Part shown: piece after piece, positions 32,522 through 56,067 of the stretch
Numbering within the stretch: position 1 is the stretch's first letter
Layout: the number at the start of each line of letters is the position of its first letter
Assembly (NCBI GenBank): GCA_963674745.2
Contig: CAXXDV010000001.1
Span: forward strand, 1 to 64,000
Direction: 5' to 3'
Length of the DNA: 64,000 nt
Source of the DNA: Desulfosudaceae bacterium
GTDB lineage: Bacteria; Desulfobacterota; Desulfobacteria; Desulfobacterales; Desulfosudaceae
The notes under the pieces: model-generated
Database searches by the model: none
Told to the model about the DNA's origin: nothing
The model's input: only the letters and a program-made list of their open reading frames with translations
Program-made: the position numbers and the translations under genes

Positions 32522-32534
32522 GGAGGACAAACTC

Positions 32535-35983: not shown

Positions 35984-36652
35984 TCATTTATTTAAAGCGT
36001 TTTCCAGGACCGGAAGGAAGATGAAAAGCAGCGTCTCTCTGACCCATTGCAGGTAAGCCTCATTTCGTTCGGGGAAACCCATGATGGCCGCCTCAATGGA
36101 GCCTGCCCCTAAAAAGTTAATGGTAAGCGCATTCAGACAGGTCAGAAAGCGGCCGGCATCACCAATTGCGAACAGTTTTGGAAAGGTATTTTCAAAATCC
36201 TGCTGGGTGTCGGTCAGGAGTCTGACCAGATGCTGGTATCCCGGCAACGTGGTGGGATCATCATGGGACATGTTGTTGACGATAATGCGGAAGACCTCAT
36301 GATGTTTTTGAGAAAACTCGATAAACCGGTCCAGGTAGGTTGACAGGGCTTTATCCGGGGAATAGTTTGATATTTCCCGTAACCATTCTTTATTGTCGTT
36401 GTAAAGCGTACGGCAGGCGTCTTCCATCACGGCTTCAAATATCCTTGCCTTGTTGGGAAAATGATACCGGATAAGCCCGTGGTAAAACTCACCCTTGTTG
36501 GCGATCATACGGATACTGGCGGCATTGTATGGATGAGCGGCAAAAACCTGCCTGGCGGCCGCCAGAATCATCTGCCGGGTGTCATCTCCTCTTTTCCCGG
36601 GCAGGCCGTTCCCGGCCTTTGTTTTACGATTGGTTTTCTCTTCTTTTTTCAT
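35984..36652 (-). CDS. TetR family regulator
   Basis: TRQMILAAARQVFA..ASIRMIA..LIRYHFPNKARIF HTH. Confidence 0.88.
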   Translation of the reverse strand: MKKEEKTNRKTKAGNGLPGKRGDDTRQMILAAARQVFAAHPYNAASIRMIANKGEFYHGLIRYHFPNKARIFEAVMEDACRTLYNDNKEWLREISNYSPDKALSTYLDRFIEFSQKHHEVFRIIVNNMSHDDPTTLPGYQHLVRLLTDTQQDFENTFPKLFAIGDAGRFLTCLNALTINFLGAGSIEAAIMGFPERNEAYLQWVRETLLFIFLPVLENALNK

Positions 36653-36690
36653 TTTATAACAAATACTTGACTAAGTCATAGCTCAGCCAC

Positions 36691-36760
36691 TTAGACGACC
36701 GTGTAATTTTTCCTTGACTTTACCGGCTGATTATCTCATTCTATTTACACGATCGTGTAA
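36691..36760. promoter_or_regulatory. Two copies of a 16-bp palindromic operator
   Basis: Perfect TTACACGATCGTGTAA (36745-36760) and 14/16 copy TTAGACGACCGTGTAA (36691-36706), flanking TTGACT at 36714. Confidence 0.75.
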
Positions 36761-36791
36761 TGTCAACCCCTATTATTTGAAGGAGAGCACC

Positions 36792-37625
36792 ATGAATCTG
36801 ACCAATTATCAAAAACTGGGACAGGAATTATACGACAAACTTCACCTGCCGACGTATCCGGTAGCCATTACCTATATTAAAAGCGAGGATGAAATTCCGA
36901 CCGAAGCCATGCGGCCGTCGGCCATGGGCCAGAAAATGTGTATCTGCCAGACCTTCACCTATGCCCGCTCCTGGGGCGCTCATGTGGCCATAACGGCCGA
37001 GGACAATTTTTGCGTACCCGGATCGGCCGGGCATAAATGGGTGGATGTCACGGACGAGGAGTTTGTTGAAAGCCAGGTCACCCAGGGCTGGCACAAGAAC
37101 CGGGAGGCGGAGACCAACCGCATCAACGGCTATAACCTGATTTTCAGCGGTTCTGACGGCGAGGCCAGACTGGCCAAAGCCAGAGAGCGGATCGGCCTGG
37201 TCGCCTCACCCCTGCACCAGGCCCTGCTGGAACCGGACACCGTCCTGGTGTTCGGCAACGGGGTTCATATCACCCATATCATTCAGGCCCTCTGTTATGA
37301 TTACCAGGCGCCGATCATGTCCGTTTTTGAAGGGTTCGGCGAATCCTGCATAATGGGCGGCATGCTGCCGTTTCTGACCGGCCAGCCCCAGATCGTCATC
37401 CCCGGCATGGGTGACCGGGCCTTTGCCGGCATTGCCGCGGATGAAATCGGCATCGGCATACCCGCGGCGAAGTTCCCAACGGTTTTAGAAGACCTGTTCA
37501 AAACCGGCGGGCCCATGAACATGGGCATGCCGTTTAAAACCATGATGCCGACCAACCTGACCGAAAACATCACACCCGGTTTTGCTTACCTGCAAAAAAT
37601 TGTTGATGAGAAAAAAAAGAAATAA
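36792..37625 (+). CDS. DUF169 family protein
   Basis: LHLPTYPVAI, CICQ..ARSWG, FCVPG, PDTVLVFG, ESC, PGMGDRAFAG..DE; AAGGAG RBS. Confidence 0.75.
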   Translation: MNLTNYQKLGQELYDKLHLPTYPVAITYIKSEDEIPTEAMRPSAMGQKMCICQTFTYARSWGAHVAITAEDNFCVPGSAGHKWVDVTDEEFVESQVTQGWHKNREAETNRINGYNLIFSGSDGEARLAKARERIGLVASPLHQALLEPDTVLVFGNGVHITHIIQALCYDYQAPIMSVFEGFGESCIMGGMLPFLTGQPQIVIPGMGDRAFAGIAADEIGIGIPAAKFPTVLEDLFKTGGPMNMGMPFKTMMPTNLTENITPGFAYLQKIVDEKKKK

Positions 37626-37631
37626 ATAGAA

Positions 37632-37657
37632 GGGCTCCCACAGGGGGGTGCCCCTAC
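37632..37657. repeat. GTAG-type REP half unit
   Basis: GGGCTCCCACAGGGGGGTGCCCCTAC, matching the right half of 22314-22373. Confidence 0.8.
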
Positions 37658-37729
37658 GTGAATCCACGACGCGCATGATATTTTTTTTGCGACAGGAAAT
37701 AAATCACTAAATAAAATATGAGGTGAAAA

Positions 37730-38776
37730 ATGGAAAATTTTGCCCAATTTGCCATAGACAACCTGAAATTTTTTGGCGCATCCGAAGTGGGTGTTGTCAC
37801 CACCGAAACCATGGCCGGCGGACCACCTTCAGCCGACCTGACCTATCTCTGGCCCGACGCCAAATCAGCAATCGTTTTTACCGTACCGCTCAATCAGGAC
37901 CTGATCCCCGGTTTTTTAAAAAAAGAAGACCAGATCTCCCATGAGAAAGACAGTTTTCAAACCAACGTGATCGCGGGCGGCCTTTCCCTGTGGGCGGCCA
38001 ACTGGGCCAGGCAGCGGGGCTTTGAGGCCATGCCCTATGTACCCAACGACAGCTACCGGGCAGACACGCCCATGGGCGTACTGGACATGCAGCCGGAGAT
38101 TTCTTTGCGTTACCTGGCGGTGCGCGCGGGACTGGGCTGGTTCGGTTTTTCCGGCAACCTGATCACGCCCGATCATGGCGCGGCCGTAATCATCGGCTGC
38201 GTCCTGACCAGCGCGGAACTGGAGCCCACCGACCCGCTGCCGCCTGAAGACAATTATTGCGACAACTGCAAGCTCTGCATGGCCGCCTGCTCCTCGGGCC
38301 TGATGGATCCCGAGGAAAAGACAACCATTACCCTTGGCGGGGTTACCTTCGAGTATCCCAAACGGCGTTCCTATATGCGGTGCAATTACGTGTGCGGCGG
38401 TGTTTCCGGCCTGCATCCCTCAGGCAAATGGTCCACCTGGTCGCCCGGCCGGTTCCCGCTGCCGGAAGATGATCAGGGCTTTGCCGACGCCATGGTAAAA
38501 AATATCGGCGCCATGATCAACCGTCCGGATTCAGGCGGCGGATACGCCCACAGCCTGATCCCGGGTGGAAAAATACACCAGACCTGCGGTAATTGTCAGA
38601 TCATCTGCCACCCGGATAAAAACGTCCGCAAAGAACGGTTTGAAATGTTAAAAGCGGGTGGTGTGGTCGTGCAGCATGAGGACGGCCGCCTGGAAGCCAT
38701 GTCTCCGGAAGCGGCTGAAAAATTTACCGCTGATATGCCGGCAGACAGGAAAAAACTGTATTGCGAGGTTGTTTAA
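37730..38776 (+). CDS. QueG/reductive-dehalogenase-fold 2x[4Fe-4S] protein (putative cobamide-dependent reductase) 1
   Basis: AKSAIVF, SLRYLAVRAGLGWFGFSGNLITPDHG, VLTSAELEP, CDNCKLCMAAC, C..CGNCQIICHP; no TAT peptide. Confidence 0.78.
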   Translation: MENFAQFAIDNLKFFGASEVGVVTTETMAGGPPSADLTYLWPDAKSAIVFTVPLNQDLIPGFLKKEDQISHEKDSFQTNVIAGGLSLWAANWARQRGFEAMPYVPNDSYRADTPMGVLDMQPEISLRYLAVRAGLGWFGFSGNLITPDHGAAVIIGCVLTSAELEPTDPLPPEDNYCDNCKLCMAACSSGLMDPEEKTTITLGGVTFEYPKRRSYMRCNYVCGGVSGLHPSGKWSTWSPGRFPLPEDDQGFADAMVKNIGAMINRPDSGGGYAHSLIPGGKIHQTCGNCQIICHPDKNVRKERFEMLKAGGVVVQHEDGRLEAMSPEAAEKFTADMPADRKKLYCEVV

Positions 38777-38813
38777 CAGAAAACATTGCGTCCTGAACAC
38801 AGGAGAAAACAAC

Positions 38814-40193
38814 ATGGGTGCTTTAGAACAGAAAATTAAGGCCTTTGCCAAAAAACAGGGGGTGGCCATTGTCGGCATTGCCGGTCCGGACAGGCTTGAC
38901 GGGCCGCCGTCCCTTGACCCCACCTATACCATGAAAGGTGCCAGATCCATCGTATCGCTGGCGATTCCCATGGACACGGACGCGATCTACCAGTTTCTCG
39001 GCAAAAAATCCTACCAGCCGCACCTGACAGACCAGACCAGGCAAAACGCCCGGCTATACCGAATTGCCGCCTATATTGCCGGATACATTCAGTCGCTTGG
39101 GTACCGCGCCAGGGAAGTGCCTTCCAACAACTCATACCGGCGATCGCCTGACACTTTCGCGACCCACCCGAGTTTTTCCCACCGGTTCGGGGCCATTGCT
39201 TCCGGTATTGCCGCCCAGGGCTGGTCCGGCAATGTCATGACCGAAGAGTTCGGCGCGGCCATGTACCTGGGCACGGTCGTCACCGAGGCGGTCCTTGAAA
39301 GCGACAAGTCAAGATACGCGCCCCGCCACTTTATCGATGAATACTGCATCAAATGCCGAATGTGCGAAAAAACCTGCGTGGCCGGTATGTTTGAACCAAA
39401 AAACGAAGAGTATGTCCTTTTAAACGGCGAACTTCATCCGCGTGGCAAAAGGCGGAACATCGACCTGTGTAATGCCTCCTGTTTTGGTCTTCATTCCCTT
39501 TCCCGGGACAAAAAATGGACCACCTGGGGGACCCGGTGGATTGATGAATGGACAGAAAAAGAAGTCGACCCGGACCAAAAATTAAAATTGCGTTATACAT
39601 TGATGAAAGAAGGCGTTCTTTCCGGCGACTCCACCCCGAGGTACTCTTTGATCAGGCAGACCGCGGCGCTCCTGCAACCGGAAGAACTGATAGAAAGCCA
39701 TCTTGAAAGCGTCGCCCATGCTGGAAACGAAACCGAACGGTTCAAACGCCTGGGGCCGTTTATGGACAGATTGAATGTGGTCGGCAGAAAACTGCTCAAA
39801 AACGAGCGTATCCTGACCTGTGGCCAGTGCGCGCTGGTGTGCGGCCCGTCCATCGATGAATGCAGAAACCGGTATAACGCGCTTATGGAAGGGGGTTTTG
39901 TGGTTGATGGCCCCGATAATGAAGTAACAGTGGTCAAGACATATGAGGAAGCCTTAAAAATGCGGGCCCGTAATTCACCAAAAATCCCTTTAAAAGACCG
40001 GGTTAAAGATTTTATACTGTCCGGGGCCATGTGGCACGCCTACTACGGCGGTGTGGAGCCGAAATCCATGATCAGCGGTTTCGTTTATGACCGCAAGCTG
40101 AAAAAAGCCGTGACCGACCGCATAACCGGCCACTTTGATACATCGAAAAAGCGGCATGAAACAGCATCAGCGCTGGAGGACCTTGCCAATTAA
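38814..40193 (+). CDS. QueG/reductive-dehalogenase-fold 2x[4Fe-4S] protein 2, with C-terminal extension
   Basis: ARSIVSLA, SHRFGAIASGIAAQGWSGNVMTEEFG, VVTEAVLESD, CIKCRMCEKTC, C..CGQCALVC; AGGAG RBS. Confidence 0.78.
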   Translation: MGALEQKIKAFAKKQGVAIVGIAGPDRLDGPPSLDPTYTMKGARSIVSLAIPMDTDAIYQFLGKKSYQPHLTDQTRQNARLYRIAAYIAGYIQSLGYRAREVPSNNSYRRSPDTFATHPSFSHRFGAIASGIAAQGWSGNVMTEEFGAAMYLGTVVTEAVLESDKSRYAPRHFIDEYCIKCRMCEKTCVAGMFEPKNEEYVLLNGELHPRGKRRNIDLCNASCFGLHSLSRDKKWTTWGTRWIDEWTEKEVDPDQKLKLRYTLMKEGVLSGDSTPRYSLIRQTAALLQPEELIESHLESVAHAGNETERFKRLGPFMDRLNVVGRKLLKNERILTCGQCALVCGPSIDECRNRYNALMEGGFVVDGPDNEVTVVKTYEEALKMRARNSPKIPLKDRVKDFILSGAMWHAYYGGVEPKSMISGFVYDRKLKKAVTDRITGHFDTSKKRHETASALEDLAN

Positions 40194-40203
40194 AAAAAAT
40201 ATT

Positions 40204-40262
40204 GTAGGGGCGGCCACCCGTGGCCGCCCGATAGATGGGCCCCCACAGGGGGGTGCCCCTAC
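40204..40262. repeat. GTAG-type REP doublet
   Basis: GTAGGGGCGGCCACCCGTGGCCGCCC..GGGCCCCCACAGGGGGGTGCCCCTAC. Confidence 0.85.
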
Positions 40263-40313
40263 GTTAACACATGACCTGTGCCTGACCGGTATAGCCAAAC
40301 AAACGGAGCGTGT

Positions 40314-40832
40314 ATGAAAAAATCGAAAGATGAAATCCTGGATACGGCATTCAGTGCGGCCAAACAATACGAGATGAAAAGCGGTGGCTGCCCCCAGTGC
40401 ACGTTGGCGGGCATTTTCGATGCCCTGGAAATTGACAATGATGATATTTTCAAAGCCGCCACCGGTCTTGCCGATGGAATCGGCCTGTCCGGCAATGGTC
40501 ATTGCGGAGCGCTTTCCGGCGGCGTACTGGCCATCAGCTATCTTTTTGGAAGAGACAAAAAAGACTTTGGCGACATCATGAAACTGGTGGAAGCAAACCT
40601 TCTGGCCAAAAAACTGGTTGAGCGGTTTATGGAAAAATACGGGACCTGCCGGTGCGCCGACCTGCAGACCTCGTTTTTCGGTCGGTTTTTCAATCTGCTT
40701 GATCCGAATGATTTGCAGGCCGCCCTGGAAGCGGGCATGCTGGAAAGGTGCTCCTCACTGGTCGGGGAAGTCGCCCGGATGACCACCGAGATCATTCTTG
40801 AGGCACAGGAAAAAAAAGGAGTCCTCTCATGA
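40314..40832 (+). CDS. C-GCAxxG-C-C family putative redox protein
   Basis: GCPQC, GHCGALSGG, FMEKYGTCRC, ERCSSLV. Confidence 0.85.
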   Translation: MKKSKDEILDTAFSAAKQYEMKSGGCPQCTLAGIFDALEIDNDDIFKAATGLADGIGLSGNGHCGALSGGVLAISYLFGRDKKDFGDIMKLVEANLLAKKLVERFMEKYGTCRCADLQTSFFGRFFNLLDPNDLQAALEAGMLERCSSLVGEVARMTTEIILEAQEKKGVLS

Positions 40833-41929
40833 CAGAATCCGTTTATGTCAATCTCTGGAAAAAATTAAATGACGGCCCCCAGACCGCCCCGACGGATGCC
40901 AAAGGGAATCCCCAGCCTTCTTTTATAAAGCACCTTGAACTGTGCTACAGCCCGGAAGAGGCTGAACTGATTCAGCACATGGAACGCCCCGGGCGCTTTT
41001 TGTCGACTCAGGAGGTGGCTGATCGGGCCGGCAAAAAGCCTGAAGAGGTGGAAGCCATTTTGAGCGGCATTAATAAGAAAAACGGGCTTCTCGGGATGCC
41101 CGGTTTTTATTCACTTCCGCCCATGCCGATCATTTTTAATATCCACCAGTTCTATCCCGAAATAAAACCTGACGACCTTAAAGCCGCTGAACTTTATCAG
41201 GATTATTTCATCAAAGACAAATTTTACCGGTATTATGAAGGCTCTATGAAGGGGACACCGGTCTTTAGAACCATTCCTGTAGAAATGTCCATTGAGGCGG
41301 AACAGCGGGTATTGCCGGCCGAAGAAGCCCATGATTTTATCCTGAATCATGCGCCTGAAGAACTGGCGCTGGTTCCCTGCCCCTGCCGCACCCGCACGGA
41401 AAAAATGGGCATCCGTGAATGCAAAGACAAAAACCCGGTTGCCTCGTGTATCATGATGGGACCGGTAGCCCTTCATTTTGAAATGCTTGGCCTGGGCAAA
41501 CGGGTCACCCGCCGGGAAGCGGTCGCGTACTTTGATGAAATGCAGGAACTGGGTCTGGTGGGCCAGACAGACAATGCCTTGGCAGGTAACGCGATTATCT
41601 GCCTGTGCTGCGGCTGCTGTTGTTCCCAGTTGCGCGGCCGGACAAGATGGGGTAACATGTCTGCCATACTGCCGTCAAATTTTATTCCCGTGGCCGGGGA
41701 TGACTGTATACAATGCGGACTCTGTATGGAACGCTGCCCGTTCGGGGCCCTGGCCATGGATGAAGAGACCGAGCGCCCGGTTGTTTCGCCGGATAAATGC
41801 ATTGGCTGCGGCGTATGCACATTAACCTGTCCCCAGGAAACATTAAAATTGACCCGGCTTGAACGCTCCACACCTTTTAATACAGGAAAGGAAATGATTA
41901 AAACCATCGCCCTGGAAAACAGGGCATGA
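40829..41929 (+). CDS. Multi-Fe-S protein A (N-terminal HTH-like region, Cys-rich centre, 2x[4Fe-4S])
   Basis: CPCR..C..C, ICLCCGCCC, CIQCGLCMERCP, CIGCGVCTLTCP. Confidence 0.8.
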   Translation: MTESVYVNLWKKLNDGPQTAPTDAKGNPQPSFIKHLELCYSPEEAELIQHMERPGRFLSTQEVADRAGKKPEEVEAILSGINKKNGLLGMPGFYSLPPMPIIFNIHQFYPEIKPDDLKAAELYQDYFIKDKFYRYYEGSMKGTPVFRTIPVEMSIEAEQRVLPAEEAHDFILNHAPEELALVPCPCRTRTEKMGIRECKDKNPVASCIMMGPVALHFEMLGLGKRVTRREAVAYFDEMQELGLVGQTDNALAGNAIICLCCGCCCSQLRGRTRWGNMSAILPSNFIPVAGDDCIQCGLCMERCPFGALAMDEETERPVVSPDKCIGCGVCTLTCPQETLKLTRLERSTPFNTGKEMIKTIALENRA

Positions 41930-41951
41930 TACCCCTTAAAAGGAGAATAAA

Positions 41952-43019
41952 ATGGCAAGAGATATCTACAGAGAACTTCAGGAAAGGCTGGACCTTTTTT
42001 CCATTGGTTTTCCACCCGCGCCTTCCGGCGTGGAGATCACGATTTTAAAGCGACTGTTTTCAGAAGAAGACGCCGATCTCTTCCTTAAATTAACGCCCCT
42101 CCTGGAACCGGCTGAAAAGATAGCCGAGAATCTGGGATTGCCGGCAGAGGAGACCAAATCCAGGCTGGCGGACATGGCCGGCCGGGGCCTGCTGTTTTCC
42201 AAAACCAAGGGGGAGACAACGCTTTACGGGGCCACGCCATTTGTCCATGGGATCTTTGAATACCAGGTAAACCGGCTGGACAAGGAGCTGGCGGAATTAA
42301 TGAATCAATACGGCATGGAAGCTTTGGGCATTAACATGTTGCAGCACGGGGGCTCTTTTTTGCGGACCATTCCGGTAAATCAGGCCCTGGCCCCGGAAAA
42401 TCAGGTGGCCTCCTATGATGACGCCCGGGAAATTTTAAAAAGCAAACGCACTGTTGTGGTAACGGATTGTATCTGCCGTAAAAAACAGAACACGCTTGAC
42501 AAGGGCTGCGGCAAAGTCGTCGAGGCCTGCTTCATGTTTGATACCATGGCGGAATACTACCTGGCGCACGACCTGGGTCGCCAGGTCACCGTTGATGAGG
42601 CCATCAAAATCCTGGAAAAAGCCCGGGAACAGGGACTGGTTACCCAGCCGGCCACGGCCCAGAACCCTGACGGCATGTGCAATTGCTGCGGAGACTGTTG
42701 CGGCGTCCTTCAAGCCATTAATTTTCATCCCAAACCGTCAGAAATTGTCAGTTCCAATCATTATGCCGTTCTGGACCGTGATGCCTGCACCGGGTGCGAA
42801 ACCTGTATCGACCGGTGCCAGACCAACGCCCTGTCAATGGGTGAAGATGATCTGGCCGTCCTGAACCCGGACCGGTGCATCGGCTGCGGTCTGTGCGTTG
42901 TTACCTGCCCGTCTGAAGCCCTTACCCTTCAGACGAAATCAGCAGAAGACCAGTATCAGCTTCCCAAGGACGGCATGGAGCAGATGGTGGCATTGGCCCA
43001 GAAGCGGGGTGTTCTCTAA
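41952..43019 (+). CDS. Multi-Fe-S protein B, paralog of A
   Basis: CICR..C..C, MCNCCGDCC, CTGCETCIDRC, CIGCGLCVVTCP; both paralogs share RTIPV. Confidence 0.8.
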   Translation: MARDIYRELQERLDLFSIGFPPAPSGVEITILKRLFSEEDADLFLKLTPLLEPAEKIAENLGLPAEETKSRLADMAGRGLLFSKTKGETTLYGATPFVHGIFEYQVNRLDKELAELMNQYGMEALGINMLQHGGSFLRTIPVNQALAPENQVASYDDAREILKSKRTVVVTDCICRKKQNTLDKGCGKVVEACFMFDTMAEYYLAHDLGRQVTVDEAIKILEKAREQGLVTQPATAQNPDGMCNCCGDCCGVLQAINFHPKPSEIVSSNHYAVLDRDACTGCETCIDRCQTNALSMGEDDLAVLNPDRCIGCGLCVVTCPSEALTLQTKSAEDQYQLPKDGMEQMVALAQKRGVL

Positions 43020-43059
43020 CCGGCAAGGCCCAACAGCTCCCTGCGGAGACAGATGAACA

Positions 43060-44739
43060 ATGACGGTAAAAAACACAGACGTTCTGGTAATCGGTGCCGG
43101 TGGCGCCGGCATTTTTGCCGCTGTTAACGCATCCAAATCCGGGGCCGATGTTATCATTGTTTCCAAGGGACCGTCCGGTTACGGCGACACCCGCATATCG
43201 CTCGGCGCCATGTGCAAATCTCCTGATGGGTTACTTGATTCAAACAAAAAATTTGCCGGGGACATGATGGCCGGCGGCGGCTTCCTGAACAACGCCAGGC
43301 TCGTCAACATCCTCGTGGACGAAGCGACCGCTGCGGCCATTTCGCTGGAAAATTGCGGGCATATTTTTAAACGAAACCCTTCGGGAAAACTTGAAAACCC
43401 TTTCGGTAAATTCGGCGGTCACCGGTATAACCGTACGATCATAAGCCCGGCCTTTGGCGTTTCCATGGGCCAGGCAATGCGTTCAGGGCTGGCCAGATCA
43501 GGCGTTTCAGTACTTGAAGAAACGATATGCGCCGAGCTGATAGTCGCAGAAGGCGGCGTGGCCGGTGCTGTGGTTCTATGCATGAAGACCGGCGAAGTGG
43601 CGGCCATACTGGCAAAATCGGTCATTATGGCATCGGGCGGCGCCGGTGCCTTGTATTACCCCCATTCCGATTGCATGCCCTGCGTCACCGGCGACAGCTA
43701 CAGCCTTTCTCTGGGTGCCGGGGCCGAACTTGTCGATATGGAGCAGGTCCAGTTCCTTCCCTTTTCAATTACACATCCCAAATCCATGGAAGGGGTTATA
43801 TGCGGCGAGCATGCCATGGCAAGGCCTTTTGGCAAGCTTATTAACAACAAGGGAAAAGTTGTCCTGAAAAACTTTCATAATATGACCCGGGCGGAAGTTT
43901 CCAAAATAATGATCGAAGAAATCAAAAACGGCGGTGCTACCGAGCATGGCGGCCTTTTGTTTGACGTCAGCACAAATATGAAAATACCGGTATTGCGAAC
44001 CATATACAGAAATAAAATGAATGAAGCGGCCGCCCATTTTCTGGAAAACATTCGCAAAGCCTATGGCAAAGATGCCGCGGAATTCCGGGAGCCCTGGGAT
44101 GTCCTGCCCACGGCACACTACTTCATGGGCGGGATAATTACCGATGAATGCTGCCGGAGCCGTGTAGCAGGCCTGTATGCCTGCGGACAGGCCCAGGGCG
44201 GGGTAATGGGAGGGAACAGGCTGGGATCGACCTCTCTTACGGAGATTTTTGTTTTCGGCAAACGGGCGGGGATGACTGCCGCGAAAGAAGCGAACAGTCG
44301 CGGCCTCTGCAGCAAAGAGGCGGCGGCGGTTGCCGTGGAAAGGCTGAACAATCTTTTTGGCCGCAAAGGGAAAATCCCACCCATAAAATTAAAAAAACGA
44401 ATCCAGAAACTGATGTGGGCACATGCCGGTCCGCTGCGTGATGAGCAGGGACTCACTGCGGCTTACGATCTGCTGGCCGAAATCAAAAAGGACGCGGTGG
44501 ATCTGGGAACCGCTTCATTCAGGCGCTACAATACCCAGGTTGTTGATGCGATTGAGCTGTCGCACATGATCCCGGCGGCCGAGGCCATCATCATATCCGC
44601 GCTCGGGCGGAAAGAATCCCGGGGGGCCCATGTGCGGTCTGATTTCCCCGACACAAAAAAGACAATCACGCCCGGAAATGTTGTGGTGAGAAATATGGGC
44701 GGCAAACTTACGGCTGTTTTAAAAGAATCAACGTCATGA
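43060..44739 (+). CDS. Fumarate reductase/succinate dehydrogenase-family flavoprotein with atypical active site
   Basis: DVLVIGAGGAG, DMEQVQF, TAHYFMGG, GGNRLGSTSL, RKESRGAHVRSDFP; the covalent-FAD His motif is absent. Confidence 0.85.
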   Translation: MTVKNTDVLVIGAGGAGIFAAVNASKSGADVIIVSKGPSGYGDTRISLGAMCKSPDGLLDSNKKFAGDMMAGGGFLNNARLVNILVDEATAAAISLENCGHIFKRNPSGKLENPFGKFGGHRYNRTIISPAFGVSMGQAMRSGLARSGVSVLEETICAELIVAEGGVAGAVVLCMKTGEVAAILAKSVIMASGGAGALYYPHSDCMPCVTGDSYSLSLGAGAELVDMEQVQFLPFSITHPKSMEGVICGEHAMARPFGKLINNKGKVVLKNFHNMTRAEVSKIMIEEIKNGGATEHGGLLFDVSTNMKIPVLRTIYRNKMNEAAAHFLENIRKAYGKDAAEFREPWDVLPTAHYFMGGIITDECCRSRVAGLYACGQAQGGVMGGNRLGSTSLTEIFVFGKRAGMTAAKEANSRGLCSKEAAAVAVERLNNLFGRKGKIPPIKLKKRIQKLMWAHAGPLRDEQGLTAAYDLLAEIKKDAVDLGTASFRRYNTQVVDAIELSHMIPAAEAIIISALGRKESRGAHVRSDFPDTKKTITPGNVVVRNMGGKLTAVLKESTS

Positions 44740-45383
44740 ACATTACCATATCCATTCAGCGCTATAACCCGGAAACCGACGCCGGCCCAAAATGGGTCGA
44801 ATATTCCGTTCCCGCAGAAGAGGGGGCGACGGTGATGTCATGCCTCCAGCATATTTATGAAAATGACGATTCGACCCTGGCCTTCCGCCAGGGATGCCGG
44901 TTCCATTCCTGCGGGTTGTGCGCCCTGATGGTAAACGGAAAGCCGAAAATGGCCTGCGCCGCAAAAGCCAAAGATCAAATGAAAGTCGCCCCGCTTAAGG
45001 GGATGACCGTCGTTCGCGATCTGGTTACAGACAGAAGCGTTTTTTTCGAAAAGCTCCGCGAACTTGACATATTCATCCCCGAGCAGAAAGCGGCATCAAC
45101 TCCCGTAAAAATTTTTGAGCCAAAAGATCATGTGGATTTGTTAAAATGTCTGGAATGCCTGGCATGCAATGCCACTTGCCCCGAATTTGTCAGTAACAGC
45201 GATTCGTTTCCGGGGCCCTATATATTTGTCAAGCTGGCGCAACTGCATTTTGATCCGCGGGACGAAATCAACCGGAAACAACAGGCCGCCGAACTCGGTA
45301 TTCAAAAATGTGCTGATTGCAGTAAATGCACCTGCATAAACGGAATAGGAATTTACAAACAAGCGATTGATATACTGAAATGA
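44736..45383 (+). CDS. FrdB/SdhB-like iron-sulfur subunit
   Basis: CRFHSCGLC..C (2Fe-2S), VVRDLVTD, CLECLACNATCP, FPGP, CADCSKCTC. Confidence 0.85.
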   Translation: MNITISIQRYNPETDAGPKWVEYSVPAEEGATVMSCLQHIYENDDSTLAFRQGCRFHSCGLCALMVNGKPKMACAAKAKDQMKVAPLKGMTVVRDLVTDRSVFFEKLRELDIFIPEQKAASTPVKIFEPKDHVDLLKCLECLACNATCPEFVSNSDSFPGPYIFVKLAQLHFDPRDEINRKQQAAELGIQKCADCSKCTCINGIGIYKQAIDILK

Positions 45384-45415
45384 TTATTGTTCAACTTTCA
45401 TCATAAGGAGAACAC

Positions 45416-46444
45416 ATGGCCATTCGTCGTAAAATAAAAGACAGATACCGCCGGTTTCCTTATCTTTCAGATTTCGCGGGTATGAAAAGCGCCATCGGTG
45501 AAATGCGCGGGCTCGGCTTTCCCAAACAGCCGCCGCTGAATACGGCCTTATCGCCGCAGGACGACGTGCCGGTGCTTGACGAGCAATGGTTCATCGATGA
45601 AATAAAGCATAAAATCGCCACGCATCCTGAAAACTGCCTGGAGTTTCCCTATGCCACAGAACCCATATTCGATGAACCGCTGGTGGGGTTTGTCAGGGGC
45701 GATGATCCGATTTTTCAAAAGTTTAAATCCATCATCGGCCCTCACCATTATACACCCCAGGAAATCATGGCCTGGCAGGCGGAAAAAAACAATGTGCCCC
45801 CCCCGCCGGCCGAAGAGCTCTCGGTGGTCTCTTATGTCATGCCGATTACCCGGGCGACCAAACAGCAGAACGCCGAATGTACCGAATGGCCGGCAGAACG
45901 CTGGGCCCAGACCCGGTTGTCCGGCGAAATTTTCAGCCAGGAATTTACCCGGGAAATCGTTACCTTTCTGATGAACAAAGGGGTGCTGGCAATCGCACCT
46001 GATGTGACACCGTTGTTTAACAAAAAGCGCTACCCGGAGGTGGGCTGGGCCTCACCCTGGTCGCACCGGCACATTGCCTATGCCGCCGGCCTGGGCACCT
46101 TCGGCATGCACGATTTTCTGATTACGGAAAAAGGCTGCGCCCACCGGCTGGGCAGTTTCGTGGTCCACAAACCGCTTCAACCCAACCGGCAGCGACCTGA
46201 CGACATCCATGCCTATTGCCTTCAATACCAGGGAAAGCAGTGCCTCAAATGCGCCAGACGTTGTCCGGTCGGCGCCATCAGCAAAGAAAACGCCCATGAC
46301 AAGGAAAAATGCTATAAACATGTGGCCAGTTCGCTGAAGTACTGCCTGAAAAACTATCATATTTTCATTTACGGCTGCGGCATCTGCGCCACCAATGTCC
46401 CCTGTGAATCCGGGATTCCGGTTAAGAGGGAGACCGCAGGTTAA
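45416..46444 (+). CDS. QueG/reductive-dehalogenase-fold Fe-S protein 3 (distinct subfamily)
   Basis: WSHRHIAYAAGLGTFGMHDFLITEKGCAHRLGS, C..CLKCARRCPVGAI, C..CGICATNVPC. Confidence 0.75.
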   Translation: MAIRRKIKDRYRRFPYLSDFAGMKSAIGEMRGLGFPKQPPLNTALSPQDDVPVLDEQWFIDEIKHKIATHPENCLEFPYATEPIFDEPLVGFVRGDDPIFQKFKSIIGPHHYTPQEIMAWQAEKNNVPPPPAEELSVVSYVMPITRATKQQNAECTEWPAERWAQTRLSGEIFSQEFTREIVTFLMNKGVLAIAPDVTPLFNKKRYPEVGWASPWSHRHIAYAAGLGTFGMHDFLITEKGCAHRLGSFVVHKPLQPNRQRPDDIHAYCLQYQGKQCLKCARRCPVGAISKENAHDKEKCYKHVASSLKYCLKNYHIFIYGCGICATNVPCESGIPVKRETAG

Positions 46445-46490
46445 AAAAAACACCATTGCGCAACCAGCCTGTTATCAGGGTGACTACAAC

Positions 46491-47792
46491 ATGAACAGTA
46501 ACAGTGTGATCCCCGAACGTTTCCCCTCGGTGCTGATAGACCGGTTTGCCTGCGTCATGGAGCGCCATCTCGCTGACATGAAAATTCAGATGGAGATGGT
46601 ATTTGATCACAGGCTCGATCTGGACCGGCTGCAGCGGGCGTTTCGGCTTGCGCTGGATGCGGAACCTGTCCTCGGATGCCGTTTCGTGGACCGCCTACCA
46701 GAGTTGCACTGGCAAAGGCTGCCGCACATTGATCACGAACTCCTGGAACTGACAGATGACCTGGAGCGGTTCTCCGCCTTCCGTACACGTAAGATCAACC
46801 CGTTCGAAGGGCTACAGATTGAGGCGGCCGTTCTGCGTGAGGGAGAAGGTGACAGGCTTTTGATCAAATTAAGTCATCTGGTCGGAGATGCGGGCGGGAT
46901 TAAAGAAACTGTCGAATTGATTGCCGATATCTACAAAAGGCTGGAATACGATCCGGGTTATGTGCCCCGCTCAAACTGTTCAGGCAGCCGCTGTATGAGA
47001 CAGGTGGTCAAAAAGGTTCCCTGGCACGCTTACCCGCGAATACTCCGGAATGCCATGCAGGAATTGATATCCAACGGCCTGCCATCGACTACATTTGCCC
47101 TGCCGTCGCCAAATGGCCCTCGGGAAGGGCTTGATTACATTACAGTTGATTTACCAGATGAAAGGGTGGCCCGTATTGCTGCGTACAGCAGATCTTTCGG
47201 GGCCACTCTTAACGATATCCTCATAGCCGCGTTTTACAGGGCGGGAGTGGACACCGGGGAATGGGACGGCAGGAAGAAACTGAGGCTGATGACCACTGTC
47301 GATTTGAGACGCTGGTACATACCCGAGGGGCGGGGTGAGTCGATTGCCAACCTGAGCACGTTCGAGTTCGTAAATCTTGGACGGGATCTGGGGACCGATT
47401 TTGATGATACGCTGAAAAGAATTTCCCGTTTAACCGGCCGGAGGAAAAACAGCTGGATCGGTCTTAACATGAGTATTGTTCTCCCGGCACTTCTGGCATT
47501 ACCGCATGGCTGGCTCATGAAGGCACTTGAGAAAGTCGCTTCGGCGTTTATTATGAACGGAAAATTCATGCCGGCATTAACCAACATGGGGCCGATAGAA
47601 CCAGACCGGATACGTTTCGGGAAACCACCGCGACGGGCTTGGCTGCTGGCGCCGGCCCCTTATCCGCCAAATTTCGTTGCCGGAGTCACGGGCTATCGGG
47701 GGAGCCTGACACTCTCGGCCGGCGTCTACCCGGCAACAAGGAAAACGGCGGAAAAAATGTTCAAACGGATCCTTGACGAATTGCCGGAATAG
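46491..47792 (+). CDS. Stand-alone condensation-domain / CoA-dependent acyltransferase
   Basis: LDRLQRAF..EPVL, SHLVGDAGG (HxxxD), GATLNDIL, TVDLRR, LTNMG. Confidence 0.75.
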   Translation: MNSNSVIPERFPSVLIDRFACVMERHLADMKIQMEMVFDHRLDLDRLQRAFRLALDAEPVLGCRFVDRLPELHWQRLPHIDHELLELTDDLERFSAFRTRKINPFEGLQIEAAVLREGEGDRLLIKLSHLVGDAGGIKETVELIADIYKRLEYDPGYVPRSNCSGSRCMRQVVKKVPWHAYPRILRNAMQELISNGLPSTTFALPSPNGPREGLDYITVDLPDERVARIAAYSRSFGATLNDILIAAFYRAGVDTGEWDGRKKLRLMTTVDLRRWYIPEGRGESIANLSTFEFVNLGRDLGTDFDDTLKRISRLTGRRKNSWIGLNMSIVLPALLALPHGWLMKALEKVASAFIMNGKFMPALTNMGPIEPDRIRFGKPPRRAWLLAPAPYPPNFVAGVTGYRGSLTLSAGVYPATRKTAEKMFKRILDELPE

Positions 47793-47932
47793 ATCTTTTA
47801 ATAGTATATCATCCCGGTTACATCGAACGGGGCCGACTGCTTACTACCGCCTTTATAAGACTGTTCTAAAAAAAATAGCCCTGTTCAAAAGCAGATACAG
47901 CGGATATGTAACATATTGTTTATGGAAGGAAT

Positions 47933-48730
47933 ATGACAGCCATGATGCCGGTATTATTCATTTCTCACGGGCCGCCGACAATTTTACTGATGGACACGCC
48001 TGTCGTGGATTTTTTAAAGCGCCTTGGTGAGCAAACGCCGTCTCCAAGCGCAATCATTTGCATATCCGCCCATTGGGAAGCGGTTAAGCCCACTTTCAGT
48101 TCCGGTGCCCGAAACGGGATCATTCATGATTTCGGTGGGCCACCTCAATTGTTTGATCAAACATATTCAGCCCTGGGATCGCCTGAACTGGCGCATGAGG
48201 CGATTGACCTGCTGACTGCCGCCGGCATCAATGCAGAAGAAAATCCGAAAAGAGATCTGGATCACGGGGCCTGGGTGCCCCTCAAACTGATGTTCCCAAA
48301 GGCCGACATTCCTATTGTGCAGCTTTCTATTCAGACGGATAAGGATACATCCCACCATTTTGAACTCGGCAAAGCACTCCGGCCATTGCGTCAAAAAGGC
48401 GTACTTATTATCGGCAGCGGCGGGGCGGTGCATAATCTTTATGACATCCATGGGCATAAAATCGATGACGCCCCGGTCGCTTACGCGGCCGCATTTGACC
48501 GATGGCTTCGGGAAAAGTTGATCTTTGGACAGGTTGATGAATTGATCGATTATCAAAAATGTGGGCCTGAACCCGAACAGAGTCACCCGTTTCCCGCCGA
48601 ACACTTTCTGCCTCTGTTTGTCAGCCTGGGGGCCAGCCTGCCGGAAGAAAAAGCCACTTTGATTCATCAGGGATTCATGTATGGAACCCTTTCCATGGCA
48701 GCCTATCGGTGGTCGAACAAGGAGGCATAG
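47933..48730 (+). CDS. LigB/DODA-type extradiol dioxygenase (YgiD-like)
   Basis: FISHGPP, ISAHW, DHGAWVPL, GSGGAVHNL, HP..EHFLPL, HQGF. Confidence 0.88.
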   Translation: MTAMMPVLFISHGPPTILLMDTPVVDFLKRLGEQTPSPSAIICISAHWEAVKPTFSSGARNGIIHDFGGPPQLFDQTYSALGSPELAHEAIDLLTAAGINAEENPKRDLDHGAWVPLKLMFPKADIPIVQLSIQTDKDTSHHFELGKALRPLRQKGVLIIGSGGAVHNLYDIHGHKIDDAPVAYAAAFDRWLREKLIFGQVDELIDYQKCGPEPEQSHPFPAEHFLPLFVSLGASLPEEKATLIHQGFMYGTLSMAAYRWSNKEA

Positions 48731-48808
48731 GCACTGACTTGATAACACATTGGCGATACCATATGGTTTCAGGGAAAGAACATAACGGTACAAAAGGAGG
48801 AAACAGCC

Positions 48809-49489
48809 ATGCCTTGCGCAAGTTGCCAAACGCAAACCTGCTTCACCGGGTCGGGTGAAATGCCGGCCGAATGCCCGGAGAGATATCGGGAAGAAAACAG
48901 ACGGCAGGAACCGGAAAACCGGTTTATCGAATACGCGAAACAAATACGCGACAAAAATGCCGACCGCCTTGATGAATTCATCGAATATGCCCGTTTCATG
49001 GCTTACAAAAGAATCGGGCTGGCGGGTTGTATCGGTCTTCACGACGAGTTGAGGGTCATCAGCGGCCTGTTGCAAAAGGCCGGATTTACGGTGGCATCCG
49101 TGATGTGCAAGACCGGAAGCCTGAAGAAAAAATTTGTCGGGGTGCCGGCCAAAAATCGTATGACAACCCAAACGGGCTACAACATTGGGGTGATTGCCTG
49201 CAACCCCGTGGCCCAGGCGCTTATACTGAACAAGGAGAAAACCGAACTGAACGGCATCATCGGGTTGTGCGCGGGACACGATTCCGTATTCATGAAGCAT
49301 TCCACGGCACCGGTAATCACCCTTATCGCCAAAGACCGTTCAAACGGGCACAACCCGGCCTCCATCCTGTACAATTTCTACGGCGACAATTTTTTCGCAA
49401 GAAGGCCGAACCCGAAAGGCGCCTTCAAATTCAATGCCAGGCATATCCGGCCGATTGATATTGCAAGAATGATCAAAAGAAAAATATAA
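48809..49489 (+). CDS. DUF1847 family metal-binding protein 1
   Basis: CASC..C..CP, KRIGLAGCIGL, SVMCKTG, CNPVAQA, GLCAGHDS, LIAKDR..HNP. Confidence 0.8.
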   Translation: MPCASCQTQTCFTGSGEMPAECPERYREENRRQEPENRFIEYAKQIRDKNADRLDEFIEYARFMAYKRIGLAGCIGLHDELRVISGLLQKAGFTVASVMCKTGSLKKKFVGVPAKNRMTTQTGYNIGVIACNPVAQALILNKEKTELNGIIGLCAGHDSVFMKHSTAPVITLIAKDRSNGHNPASILYNFYGDNFFARRPNPKGAFKFNARHIRPIDIARMIKRKI

Positions 49490-49499
49490 GGAACCGACA

Positions 49500-50099
49500 A
49501 TGAAAATGGCTCAATGCGCGTCCTGCTTCGAACAATTGTGTGTCGGCGGGACAAAACAAACAAAAGATTACTGCCCTGCTCACCTTTATCCGGAGATATA
49601 TAAAGACGCCGAAAAAATCTATCAGGAGGATAAGGAAACACGGTTAATGGCCAGAAATGCCGCTGTAATGGAATCCCGGGGGTATATCCTCTGGCCCCGG
49701 CTCAAGGATATCATCGAGTTCTCCAGAGCCATGAACCACCAAAAGATAGTGGTTCTTTTCTGCCCGGACGTATGGAGAGAAGCAAAAAAGACCGGCCGGA
49801 TACTTTCGGAAAACGGTTTTATCGTCGCTTCGAGAGTATGCGGAATCGGCAAATCAAGCCCTCAGGCACCGGATGAATACGCAGCCGAGATCAACGCCTT
49901 ATCCTTCGACATTGCCGTCAATGCCGGGCTTTGCGGCCCTTTTGAAGCCCGGGTCGTAAACTTGTTGAAATTCCCTGTGTCGACGTTTATTGCCAGGGAT
50001 AAAAAATTGAACAACCATCCGGCTTCGGCGGTTTATTTCTCCGATAAATGGCGGGACTGGGCCAAAGAGGTCTACCGCGATAAACTGGGACTGAAATAA
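49500..50099 (+). CDS. DUF1847 family protein 2 (degenerate paralog)
   Basis: CASC..C..CP, RLKDIIEF, GLC, FIARDK..NHP; lacks CNP and GHD. Confidence 0.7.
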   Translation: MKMAQCASCFEQLCVGGTKQTKDYCPAHLYPEIYKDAEKIYQEDKETRLMARNAAVMESRGYILWPRLKDIIEFSRAMNHQKIVVLFCPDVWREAKKTGRILSENGFIVASRVCGIGKSSPQAPDEYAAEINALSFDIAVNAGLCGPFEARVVNLLKFPVSTFIARDKKLNNHPASAVYFSDKWRDWAKEVYRDKLGLK

Positions 50100-50180: not shown

Positions 50181-50214
50181 AAAAAAGGCCCCGCCATTGA
50201 GCACGGGGCCTTTT
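50181..50214. terminator. Bidirectional intrinsic terminator
   Basis: AAAAAAGGCCCCG..CGGGGCCTTTT between convergent genes. Confidence 0.8.
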
Positions 50215-52058: not shown

Positions 52059-52217
52059 ATGGCACACAACACGATTAAATCGAGTTATTCAAAATTGGTG
52101 GCCAGGCTGAACCGGTTTCCCCAGGGCGCACCACCATCAGATTTGTTGTACACAATATTAAAAATGAAAGGGTTGCGGACCAGCCGGCATTGCGGCAAAA
52201 AAAAGGAAAAAGTATGA
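52059..52217 (+). pseudogene. N-terminal remnant of a multi-Fe-S protein of the 40829/41952 type
   Basis: MAHNTIKSSYSKLVARLNRFPQGAPPSDLLYTILK resembles IYRELQERLDLFSIGFPPAPSGVEITILK; then unrelated codons and a TGA overlapping the next ATG. Confidence 0.6.
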
Positions 52218-54079: not shown

Positions 54080-54543
54080 GATTGTGTAAAAAACATGCTC
54101 AGCACTTCAGCGACACAGGCCGGTTTTTCTTCTCCCTCAATCTCTACCGTGTGTCTGGTTTTAACCAGAATTCTGCCTCCGGCTTTTTCCACTACATCCG
54201 CCAGTTCGATGCGGTCTCTGATTTTCGCATCCGATTTAACCGGATTGATGAGCCTTAATTTATCCATCCCGTAATTAACCGCCATTATCACGCCCTCCGG
54301 GATAACGGTATATTGCGCCGCGAAATAGGACAAAAGAGAGACGGTCAGATAACCGTGGGCAATGGTCTGTCCGAAAGGGCCGTTTTTTGCCGCCTCTTTA
54401 TCCACGTGTATCCACTGATGATCCAAGGTACAGTCGGCAAAAGTGTCTATGCGCTCCTGGTCCATCTGGAACCAGTCGGTTACGCCAAGCTCGCTTCCAA
54501 TCTGTTCTTTCATCTTTTCTAATGATAAAACCTGAACGGCCAT
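54076..54543 (-). CDS. MaoC family (R)-specific enoyl-CoA hydratase
   Basis: FADCTLDHQWIHVD, TIAHGYLT, KPACVAE. Confidence 0.9.
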   Translation of the reverse strand: MAVQVLSLEKMKEQIGSELGVTDWFQMDQERIDTFADCTLDHQWIHVDKEAAKNGPFGQTIAHGYLTVSLLSYFAAQYTVIPEGVIMAVNYGMDKLRLINPVKSDAKIRDRIELADVVEKAGGRILVKTRHTVEIEGEEKPACVAEVLSMFFTQS

Positions 54544-54631
54544 TATTCGCCTCCTGGTAACATGGTTTATGGTTTATTTTTTCATTGCATCATAGCTGTC
54601 CGGTGTCACGATTTCCTCTTCCCGATTTATT

Positions 54632-55183: not shown

Positions 55184-55204
55184 ATAATAGATGAGACAAG
55201 CACT

Positions 55205-56044: not shown

Positions 56045-56067
56045 TGGTTTTCCTTTCCCGTTATAGT

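Follow-up and report, generated by a model that had tools for sequence, protein, structure and literature searches.

We identified, in a 64,000-nucleotide stretch of the genome of a Desulfosudaceae bacterium (assembly GCA_963674745.2, contig CAXXDV010000001.1, positions 1 to 64,000; hereafter the window, whose numbering is used unless another contig or locus is named), a run of 13 co-oriented genes at 36792-50099 that lies divergent from a TetR-family repressor gene. The run encodes three divergent members of the reductive dehalogenase (RDase)/QueG superfamily, here called QueGL1, QueGL2 and QueGL3, together with two Cys-rich polyferredoxins (FeS_A and FeS_B), a FrdAB-like pair and proteins of the DUF169, DUF1847 and C_GCAxxG_C_C families. 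Comparison with related genomes showed that the locus is a mosaic and not a fixed system, with subsets of a recurrent toolkit found again in other orders and combinations. Our favoured reading, which we put forward tentatively and with somewhat less than even confidence, is that the operon was assembled from this toolkit and would reduce an organic acid or a lipid-like compound in the cytoplasm, in one or more inducible steps, with electrons delivered by FeS_A and FeS_B.

Layout and control region of the locus

The TetR-family gene (35984-36652, minus strand) matches Pfam TetR_N at E 9.5e-10, over the cut-off, and is separated from the first gene of the run by a 139-nt spacer. The spacer holds two palindromic operator-like sites (36691-36760), TTAGACGACCGTGTAA at 36691-36706 and TTACACGATCGTGTAA at 36745-36760, with a TTGACT −35-like box between them; the second is a perfect 16-bp palindrome. 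A relaxed operator 12-mer gave eight matches in the 5.5-Mb genome, two of them at 36691-36760. Near-identical operator/promoter sites stand 5′ of the first gene in two relatives' loci (L002 and L150), though the first structural gene differs there, and the TetR orthologs of these loci (75% identity in L002, 69% in L150) occupy the same divergent position. The helix-turn-helix, the divergent position and the inverted repeat mark the TetR gene and the palindrome pair as a predicted repressor/operator unit. A preliminary description of this DNA had proposed an operon-like layout under the TetR gene, and the retention of operator and promoter in two relatives supports it.

All 13 genes are read from the plus strand, with intergenic gaps of −4 to 140 nt. 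The first encodes a DUF169 protein of 277 aa (36792-37625; Pfam DUF169 E 4.2e-40) and is followed by QueGL1 (348 aa, 37730-38776; partial TIGR00276 match, E 7.6e-12) and QueGL2 (~459 aa, ~38814-40193; TIGR00276 E 4.3e-5, RDH E 8.8e-5), whose start is uncertain, the open reading frame (ORF) opening with GTG at 38658. Then come a C_GCAxxG_C_C family protein (40314-40832; Pfam E 6.9e-22; TIGR01909 likewise above its cut-off) and the polyferredoxin paralogs FeS_A (40829-41929, 19 Cys) and FeS_B (41952-43019, 17 Cys), both matching Pfam Fer4 families. The FrdA/SdhA-fold flavoprotein with an altered active site (43060-44739; FAD_binding_2 E 1.3e-59, Succ_DH_flav_C E 3.5e-22) and the FrdB/SdhB-like Fe-S subunit of 215 aa (44736-45383; Fer2_3 E 3.5e-30, dhsB TIGR00384 over cut-off) precede QueGL3 (342 aa, 45416-46444; partial TIGR00276 match, E 3.9e-9). 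Next to it lies a tentative acyltransferase candidate of Condensation/PapA5-like type (46491-47792; start uncertain, ORF opening at 46395), which matches PapA_C at E 0.0023, under the cut-off. The run closes with a LigB-superfamily protein of the 4,5-DOPA extradiol dioxygenase/YgiD type (47933-48730; Pfam LigB E 2.1e-39), DUF1847a (48809-49489; Pfam E 2.3e-41) and DUF1847b (49500-50099; Pfam E 3.6e-17), the last covering profile positions 1-95 of 157, that is, the N-terminal two thirds only. The DUF169, DUF1847a, DUF1847b and C_GCAxxG_C_C matches (138.3, 141.4, 62.8 and 78.2 bits) are all over the Pfam gathering cut-offs of 25-27 bits (27, 25, 25 and 27, respectively).

Downstream of DUF1847b, a terminator-like hairpin of the bidirectional intrinsic type (50183-50214; 12-pair stem, 7 of the pairs GC, flanked by T runs to left and right) was the only strong candidate in a terminator scan, the other listed sites having at most 10 pairs. 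ORF listing and sequence thus agree with the earlier account of a 13-gene co-oriented run with a divergent TetR gene, a double palindrome and a terminator. Its family calls were recovered by Pfam and NCBIfam profile searches, with the acyltransferase remaining tentative; the matches to the Fer4 families, FAD_binding_2, Succ_DH_flav_C, Fer2_3 and LigB, too, exceed the Pfam cut-offs. The solubility that it ascribed to the gene products was also recovered: in a crude Kyte-Doolittle scan with a 19-residue window, not a dedicated predictor, no transmembrane segment was found in the 13 proteins (maximum 1.97), and a simple pattern scan of the same proteins for the twin-arginine translocation (TAT) motif [ST]RRxF[LIVMK] was negative. 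A prophage or mobile island was considered as well and set aside, there being no integrase or transposase among the scanned ORFs and a GC content (0.51-0.55) similar to that of the flanks.

QueG-like proteins and the chemistry they may catalyse

A profile of 47 QueGL3 homologs matched PceA-type dehalogenase in the PDB at E 3.4e-9 and QueG at E 1.3e-6. The AlphaFold (AF2) model of QueGL3, with a predicted local distance difference test score (pLDDT) of 85.6 and a predicted template modelling score (pTM) of 0.87, gave 46 Foldseek matches in the PDB at E<=1e-3, all 46 of which were PceA, NpRdhA or QueG. Because profile, predicted model and Foldseek matches agree, the predicted fold of QueGL3 is confirmed as belonging to the cobalamin-core plus two-[4Fe-4S] RDase/QueG class. 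Eight Cys residues (268, 276, 279, 283, 299, 321, 324 and 330) are invariant in the 47-sequence alignment.

The other QueG-like proteins were compared by sequence and profile. QueGL1 matches the PDB QueG structure 5d08 at E 6.6e-6 and reached an hhalign probability of 92% against the QueGL3 profile, and QueGL2 is 26% identical to QueGL1 over 377 aa. A fourth QueG-like paralog, QueG290 (52190-53062, plus strand; Fer4_16 E 3.5e-9), lies outside the span of the preliminary description; it reached an hhalign probability of 97% against the QueGL3 profile and has the common SH[KR]H motif in the version SHKH. These matches suggest that QueGL1, QueGL2 and QueG290 are related members of the RDase/QueG superfamily. 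The earlier claim of three QueG/RDase-fold proteins is hence carried by model and Foldseek for QueGL3 and by sequence and profile for QueGL1 and QueGL2, at scores below the curated cut-offs.

With the QueG model TIGR00276, partial matches of ~60-125 residues were obtained for QueGL1 (44.9 bits), QueGL2 (22.7) and QueGL3 (36.0), against a cut-off of 200. A genome-wide scan with this model returned seven matches, among which the copies at the locus score at most 48.6 bits; four partial matches lie within a 16-kb stretch and are distinct from the one full-length QueG-like gene, which stands elsewhere (C1:1360435; 148.7 bits, model positions 1-336). The reductive dehalogenase model TIGR02486 gave at best 27.4 bits for the QueG-like proteins of the operon and 49.1 bits for QueG290, against a cut-off of 160, and no gene in the whole genome exceeded that cut-off. 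In the alignment with 5d08, ISLRY of QueGL1 falls on the LSDRA stretch, so that Leu occupies the position of the catalytic Asp, which we take to be Asp134 in B. subtilis numbering (the offset being inferred from the 5d08 construct). QueGL3 carries WSHRH at the same stretch; among its homologs R218 and H219 do not vary, and H217 is nearly invariant. The QueG-like proteins resemble QueG (TIGR00276; 5d08, 5d6s) in fold, AGLG-plus-ferredoxin core, solubility and partial matches to the model and to PDB entries, but differ from it by the absence of a C-terminal HEAT-like domain match, the Leu or His at the Asp134 position and scores under 200 bits. To judge from their sequences, QueGL1, QueGL2 and QueGL3 are not QueG orthologs. 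A gene for CbiB is present in the genome.

QueGL3 belongs to a large family: with a threshold of E<=1e-20 it matches 2989 or more clusters at 90% identity, and the named ones are mostly called 'epoxyqueuosine reductase' in databases, a label that is probably wrong. Among representatives at 50% identity, the matches number 1365 at E<=1e-3 and 141 at E<=1e-30 and are for the most part ~290 aa long. Orthologs with 59-87% identity were collected at 67 genome loci in records of Thermodesulfobacteriota (Desulfosudaceae, Desulfatibacillum, Smithella and other syntrophs), Dehalococcoidia/Chloroflexota, Planctomycetota and Spirochaetota, and reduce to essentially one representative at 50% clustering. 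This cross-phylum conservation, together with the database name and a position between uvrB and uvrC at three loci (L023, L027 and L028), would suit a housekeeping or nucleoside role, in which QueGL3, perhaps with its paralogs, reduces a conserved metabolite or a modified nucleoside, for instance as an alternative epoxyqueuosine reductase or in repair and salvage, and the operon context is incidental. We regard such a role as very improbable. The genome has its separate full-length QueG-like gene, the catalytic Asp of QueG is a His within the SHRH motif, QueGL3 was not found in two of five close relatives, one of them 96% complete, and the neighbours of QueGL3 are frequently catabolic (acyl-CoA ligase, SCP2, MFS, sulfatases, TetR).

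The fold matches to PceA and NpRdhA bear on another possibility, catabolic non-respiratory reductive dehalogenation, which would be a sub-case of the favoured explanation. The QueG-like proteins would then be cytosolic dehalogenases of natural organohalides, analogous to NpRdhA and BhbA and fed by polyferredoxin. Like NpRdhA and BhbA, QueGL3 is soluble, has no TAT motif or membrane anchor, stands in a catabolic gene context and is of the same fold class by Foldseek (6zxx, 6zy1 and 4ras among the matches), and hydrolases and sulfatases are frequent near it. However, QueGL3 is half their size (342 vs ~700 aa), with template modelling (TM) scores of only 0.42-0.44, contains neither the vestigial second core nor the C-terminal NAD(P)H reductase domain, and scores far under the RdhA model's cut-off; it would depend on separate polyferredoxins for its electrons. 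Unlike respiratory RdhA systems, the operon has neither a TAT motif nor an RdhB-like membrane partner, and its QueG-like proteins stay under 160 bits.

A 2025 survey (PMC12219181) describes, as far as its accessible text goes, 'simplified cytosolic RdhA-like' proteins that are typical of Desulfobacterota and Chloroflexota, biochemically untested, and encoded next to beta-oxidation genes. By this description the present proteins share with that clade the phyla, the cytosolic location, the short N-terminus and the beta-oxidation association, and differ in that the clade averages 395 aa and that DUF169, DUF1847, C_GCAxxG_C_C and polyferredoxin partners are not mentioned in that portion of the survey. 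The match in taxon range and gene context speaks for dehalogenation, but it is a match by description only. Against dehalogenation also stand the best operon score of 27.4 bits, the lack of any gene in the genome over the RdhA cut-off, and a cross-phylum conservation of QueGL3 that is unlike that of substrate-diversified RdhAs. Altogether, we hold dehalogenation to be distinctly unlikely.

A recurrent toolkit in a mosaic locus

Homologs of the operon proteins were counted by tblastn within 6 kb of the QueGL3 ortholog at the 67 loci, many of which are on short contigs and some of which, coming from related genomes, are not independent. DUF169 was present at 13/67 loci, QueG290-like genes at 10/67, QueGL1-like and FeS_B-like genes at 7/67 each, FeS_A-like genes at 6/67, QueGL2-like genes at 5/67 and DUF1847 at 1/67, while FrdA-, FrdB-, acyltransferase-, LigB- and C_GCAxxG-like genes were at 0/67 each. 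At least one toolkit family was found at 28/67 loci; of the 37 loci with flanks of 5 kb or more in each direction, 15 had one. The association is seen in Desulfobacterales, in syntrophs, in Dehalococcoidia and in one Planctomycetota record (L066). These counts support the preliminary description in that the DUF families are tied non-randomly to QueG-like genes, as seen for DUF169 (13/67) and for any toolkit family (28/67). In Dehalococcoidia we identified a conserved block of short-chain dehydrogenase/reductase (SDR), acyl-CoA ligase, SCP2, QueGL3, MFS, alkaline-phosphatase-superfamily protein(s), TetR, DUF169 and QueGL2, with a FeS_A/B-like gene upstream. Acyl-CoA ligases recur near QueGL3, which is also often accompanied by MBL-fold hydrolases, DJ-1, sulfatases with an anaerobic maturase, alkylsulfatases, DUF362 and alpha/beta hydrolases. 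At the uvr-associated loci L023, L027 and L028 (around 10001-11050), the QueGL3/uvr region is followed by MntP and an O6-methylguanine methyltransferase-like gene, a housekeeping/repair context that differs from the catabolic ones.

In close relatives, shuffled subsets of the genes were found at 76-89% protein identity. The order is TetR-DUF169-QueGL2-FeS_A-FeS_B-QueGL3-QueG290 in L002, which has no QueGL1; TetR-QueG290-QueGL1-like-DUF169-C_GCAxxG-RidA-FeS_B-QueGL3-FeS_A-like in L150 (G007); FeS_B-QueGL3-QueG290 in L148 (G002, same genus); and FeS_A-hydrolase-FrhB/FdhB-like-DUF1847a-DUF1847b-QueG290 in L152 (G003). QueGL2 orthologs in L002 and the Dehalococcoidia loci are 46-56% identical. QueG290 belongs to the toolkit, because in L002, L148, L150 and L152 its orthologs (76-89%) are immediate neighbours of toolkit genes; in the window it is set apart from QueGL3 by the acyltransferase, LigB, DUF1847a and DUF1847b genes and a minus-strand ORF. 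The latter (325 aa, 50249-51226), between the terminator and QueG290, matches no Pfam family, has a chance-level NCBIfam match, and no counterpart of it was noticed in the relatives' loci.

The complete 13-gene set was not recovered at any of the loci compared, namely 67 genome loci with QueGL3, 80 metagenome loci collected by an FrdA search and the loci of four relatives. The neighbourhoods of other genomes support the earlier account only as far as toolkit subsets recur; the 13 genes are not one conserved system, given that relatives at 81-89% protein identity contain different subsets. Contigs of the metagenome run X3, compared over the parts of the stretch that they cover, match 42884-46141 and 46120-48720 at ~94-95% nucleotide identity. 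Since they keep FrdA-FrdB-QueGL3 and QueGL3-acyltransferase-LigB contiguous, the order FrdA-FrdB-QueGL3-acyltransferase-LigB exists in a second population; beyond this one ~95%-identical population the 13 genes were not recovered as a unit. In another abundant X3 contig, 37616 is joined straight to 40204, indicating that QueGL1 and QueGL2 are missing between these points, as in L150.

The DUF169 protein has invariant C52, C74, C186, H18, H101 and H162 among 13 sequences. Its predicted structure, made from that shallow alignment, was poor (pLDDT 62), and this poor model gave no Foldseek match in the PDB at E<=0.001; a sequence search of the PDB gave none either. A complex prediction of QueGL3 with DUF169, run without controls, scored 0.00 and counts neither for nor against an interaction. 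DUF169 is itself common, being present in 133/201 sampled genomes of the phylum. Another DUF169 copy of the same genome as the operon (L167, G000:C3:1628087-1633023) adjoins an SdsA-type alkylsulfatase (MBL, Alkyl_sulf_dimr and Alkyl_sulf_C) and an aldehyde:ferredoxin oxidoreductase. The C_GCAxxG_C_C protein has an 83% ortholog directly 3′ of DUF169 in L150.

FeS_A contains the Cys motifs CxC...C...C and CxCCxCCC and two copies of CxxCxxCxxxCP. Its orthologs are 84-89% identical in L002 and L152 and 66-69% in L201 and L183, and those of FeS_B (81-88%) stand beside QueGL3 in L002, L148 and L150. An Atlas look-up placed FeS_B in an uncharacterised 4Fe-4S family with unnamed or generic clusters, and ~14 FeS_B paralogs were found in the genome. 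Two FeS_A/B-family paralogs at other places in the genome, L160 and L164 (C1:369414-371123 and C3:479276-480676), lie beside B12-binding radical SAM enzymes, which is a second, independent link of the polyferredoxin family to cobamide enzymes.

DUF1847a and DUF1847b are the sole two DUF1847 genes of the genome, and the family occurs in 54/151 genomes of the order. DUF1847a gave chance-level matches only among PDB sequences; its 88% ortholog in L152 stands beside DUF1847b and QueG290. DUF1847 neighbourhoods were inspected at 30 loci with 1.5-kb flanks and in three wider regions. In L201 (2613-12962, G017) and L183 (G290), from another family of the order, DUF1847 lies behind a TetR gene between FeS_B-DUF169 and FeS_A, in the order HGD-D-like, SDR, acyltransferase-like, orf172, NMO, TetR, FeS_B, DUF169, DUF1847, FeS_A (identities of 58-65% for FeS_B, 66-67% for DUF169 and 66-69% for FeS_A); no QueG-like gene was found in this cluster up to the contig end. 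The acyltransferase-like gene of L201 is 2.7 kb upstream, together with the HGD-D, SDR and NMO genes. DUF1847 also adjoins a LigB-like gene in L189 and an FrdB-like gene in L198, and is directly 3′ of FrdA-FrdB in L199. Locus L199 (2908-8736, G037) consists of GntR, Sdh_cyt, FrdA, FrdB, DUF1847, two fumarase subunits, PrpD and CoA-transferase. With its SdhC gene and its fumarase neighbours this operon is canonical, so that DUF1847 is not confined to QueG-like surroundings and may serve SdhAB-type enzymes generally as an accessory.

The FrdA-like and FrdB-like proteins have the FAD_binding_2/Succ_DH_flav_C architecture with a Fer2_3 partner that defines the SdhA/SdhB type. Against the solved SdhA 7d6v, Asp43 of the FrdA-like protein takes the covalent-FAD His position (GDT vs AHT), and FLPF replaces FHPT, with Leu233 and Phe235 at the His and Thr positions, whereas Arg277, His353 and Arg387 are kept. 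Following E. coli FrdA/SdhA, we take the His and Thr of FHPT to be the fumarate substrate site and the His of AHT to be that of covalent flavin adenine dinucleotide (FAD). Since both the covalent-FAD His and the FHPT His/Thr are replaced, the pair is an SdhAB-fold module but probably not a fumarate reductase; the preliminary description's FrdA/B-like subunits are thus retained in fold and architecture, with altered fumarate-site residues. Canonical fumarate respiration was rejected for the pair, there being no anchor gene and the site residues being altered. Its best NCBIfam matches are TfrA (353 bits vs a cut-off of 718) and TfrB (167.8 bits vs 385, model positions 3-212 of 488). The pair is like TfrAB and soluble SdhAB in its overlapping stop and start and the absence of a membrane anchor gene, and differs from TfrAB in scoring half the cut-offs and in the 215-aa FrdB-like subunit, which has no CCG/HdrD-like extension corresponding to the HdrD/CCG half of TfrB. 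In a sample biased by retrieval with the FrdA-like protein's own peptides, 75/80 related metagenome loci carry [LIV]-F. These loci (L068-L147, marine records included) form a broad FrdA-like clade, down to 31% identity, with Asp or Asn at the covalent-FAD His position, [LIV]-F in the FHPT motif and usually an FrdB-like partner. FrdA homologs at 54-60% identity are always accompanied by an FrdB-like gene where the locus is long enough downstream, in unrelated contexts.

The acyltransferase candidate contains an HxxxD-like SHLVGDAGG stretch and gave zero sequence matches in the PDB. The LigB protein scored 188.4 bits with NF007914 (cut-off 233) and gave full-length matches to the DODA structure 29ky (E 4.8e-63) and to YgiD (2pw6, E 3.8e-45); by sequence it is a close homolog of the solved DOPA 4,5-dioxygenases and YgiD.

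These comparisons raise the question of whether the 13 genes belong together at all. The locus could be a juxtaposition of independent modules, in which a DUF169/QueG-like/FeS_A/B core has been joined by unrelated passengers (FrdAB-like, acyltransferase, LigB and DUF1847) through recombination, perhaps co-transcribed and serving no single pathway. The differing gene sets of relatives at 81-89% identity and the X3 join from 37616 to 40204 that skips QueGL1 and QueGL2 point in this direction, as do the FrdAB homologs at 54-60% that occur with no other operon gene and the 40 relatives that have no FrdA match above 33% identity and no acyltransferase match above 41%; moreover, the gaps of 140 nt before LigB and 78 nt before DUF1847a could hold internal promoters. 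However, the links of DUF1847 to DUF169/FeS_A/B, LigB-like, FrdAB-like and nearby acyltransferase-like genes recur in other families of the order, the sole strong terminator-like hairpin stands after DUF1847b, and a second population has the genes from FrdA to LigB in the same order. The passenger genes are not random, and we consider juxtaposition rather unlikely. The findings fit a plastic locus where recombination has brought the toolkit and add-on modules together behind a single TetR-controlled promoter.

Proposed role and significance

In our favoured explanation, the locus would be a TetR-repressed, ligand-inducible and fully cytoplasmic catabolic operon, a lineage-specific assembly from the shuffled toolkit. 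QueGL1, QueGL2 and QueGL3, with the downstream QueG290, would be the catalysts, as members of the superfamily with a cobamide and two [4Fe-4S] clusters, and FeS_A, FeS_B, C_GCAxxG_C_C, DUF169 and DUF1847 would provide low-potential electrons and cofactor or redox handling. The soluble FrdAB-like flavoprotein, the candidate acyltransferase and the DODA/YgiD-type ring-cleavage-family enzyme would be add-on modules that may belong to the same pathway. By a two-electron reduction, a substituent (a halide, or an oxygen function such as an epoxide or hydroxyl) would be removed from an organic acid or a lipid-like compound, and the product would feed the flanking beta-oxidation genes. An inducible reductive catabolic step is favoured because the wider window is itself catabolic: the upstream beta-oxidation genes at 30116-33719 encode a thiolase and a fused hydroxyacyl-CoA dehydrogenase/enoyl-CoA hydratase, and the downstream stretch 53102-57414 encodes a hydrolase, MaoC, a nitroreductase-Fer4 fusion and an SCPx-type thiolase. 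Just past QueG290, at 55205-56212 and 53102-54543 on the minus strand, are the nitroreductase-2x[4Fe-4S] ferredoxin fusion, the alpha/beta hydrolase and the MaoC dehydratase, which may be part of the same catabolic island. Farther on, a LarC-type nickel insertion protein (59915-61111, plus strand; PF01969 E 1.8e-145) is apparently unrelated to the operon.

Several points weigh against this explanation. The full gene set was found at none of the genome, metagenome and relatives' loci compared, 39/67 QueGL3 loci have no toolkit neighbour within 6 kb, and FrdA, FrdB, acyltransferase and LigB are missing from the vicinity of QueGL3 at all 67. FrdAB travels as an independent two-gene module in unrelated contexts, DUF1847 is found as well behind the canonical SdhC-FrdA-FrdB genes of a fumarase-associated operon, and the FeS_A/B paralogs elsewhere in the genome have mixed neighbours (hydrolases, B12-radical SAM, FGE-sulfatase, DUF362 and housekeeping genes) with no single partner. 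As for the proposed catalysts, all of the QueG-like proteins fall below the curated QueG and RdhA cut-offs, the catalytic Asp of QueG is replaced by Leu in QueGL1 and by His in QueGL3, and the Foldseek TM-scores of QueGL3 are only 0.34-0.45. In addition, QueGL3 sits between uvrB and uvrC at three of the 39 loci that have no toolkit neighbour, and its 59-87% identity across phyla is easier to reconcile with one conserved substrate than with a variable xenobiotic.

A more specific proposal, which we think doubtful and advance as speculation, is that DUF169, FeS_A/B, DUF1847 and C_GCAxxG_C_C would form a dedicated electron-delivery and cofactor apparatus for the QueGL3 clade and for ~290-aa cytosolic cobamide reductases with SHRH at the QueG Asp site. 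These enzymes would reduce one conserved metabolite common across anoxic sediments, in a reaction that is neither dehalogenation nor epoxyqueuosine reduction.

In full-text literature searches, with most subscription journals outside their scope, we found no description of the operon or of the toolkit and no mention of DUF1847, and the mentions of DUF169 that were examined are incidental, none concerning such an operon. The earlier statement that no operon of this composition had been described is in keeping with this search. That RDase-like genes for soluble proteins occur in these phyla is nevertheless less novel, because the accessible text of PMC12219181 already has cytosolic RdhA-like genes near beta-oxidation genes in print. 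According to the accessible part of a proteomic study (PMC4103992), a C_GCAxxG_C_C protein is induced by acetone in Desulfococcus biacutus.

The locus gathers four divergent superfamily members beside four families with no assigned function, DUF169, DUF1847, C_GCAxxG_C_C and the Cys-rich polyferredoxin, and sulfate reducers, syntrophs and Dehalococcoidia show the same family associations. To our knowledge, only two chemistries are established for the cobamide/Fe-S reductase superfamily, namely organohalide and epoxyqueuosine reduction, and QueGL3 stands for thousands of environmental sequences that are labelled 'epoxyqueuosine reductase'. A practical way in is provided by the conserved TetR-operator unit, as the ligand of TetR would name the substrate. 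Once known, this substrate would give several DUF families functions and could reveal a third B12-dependent reductase chemistry in anoxic carbon cycling.

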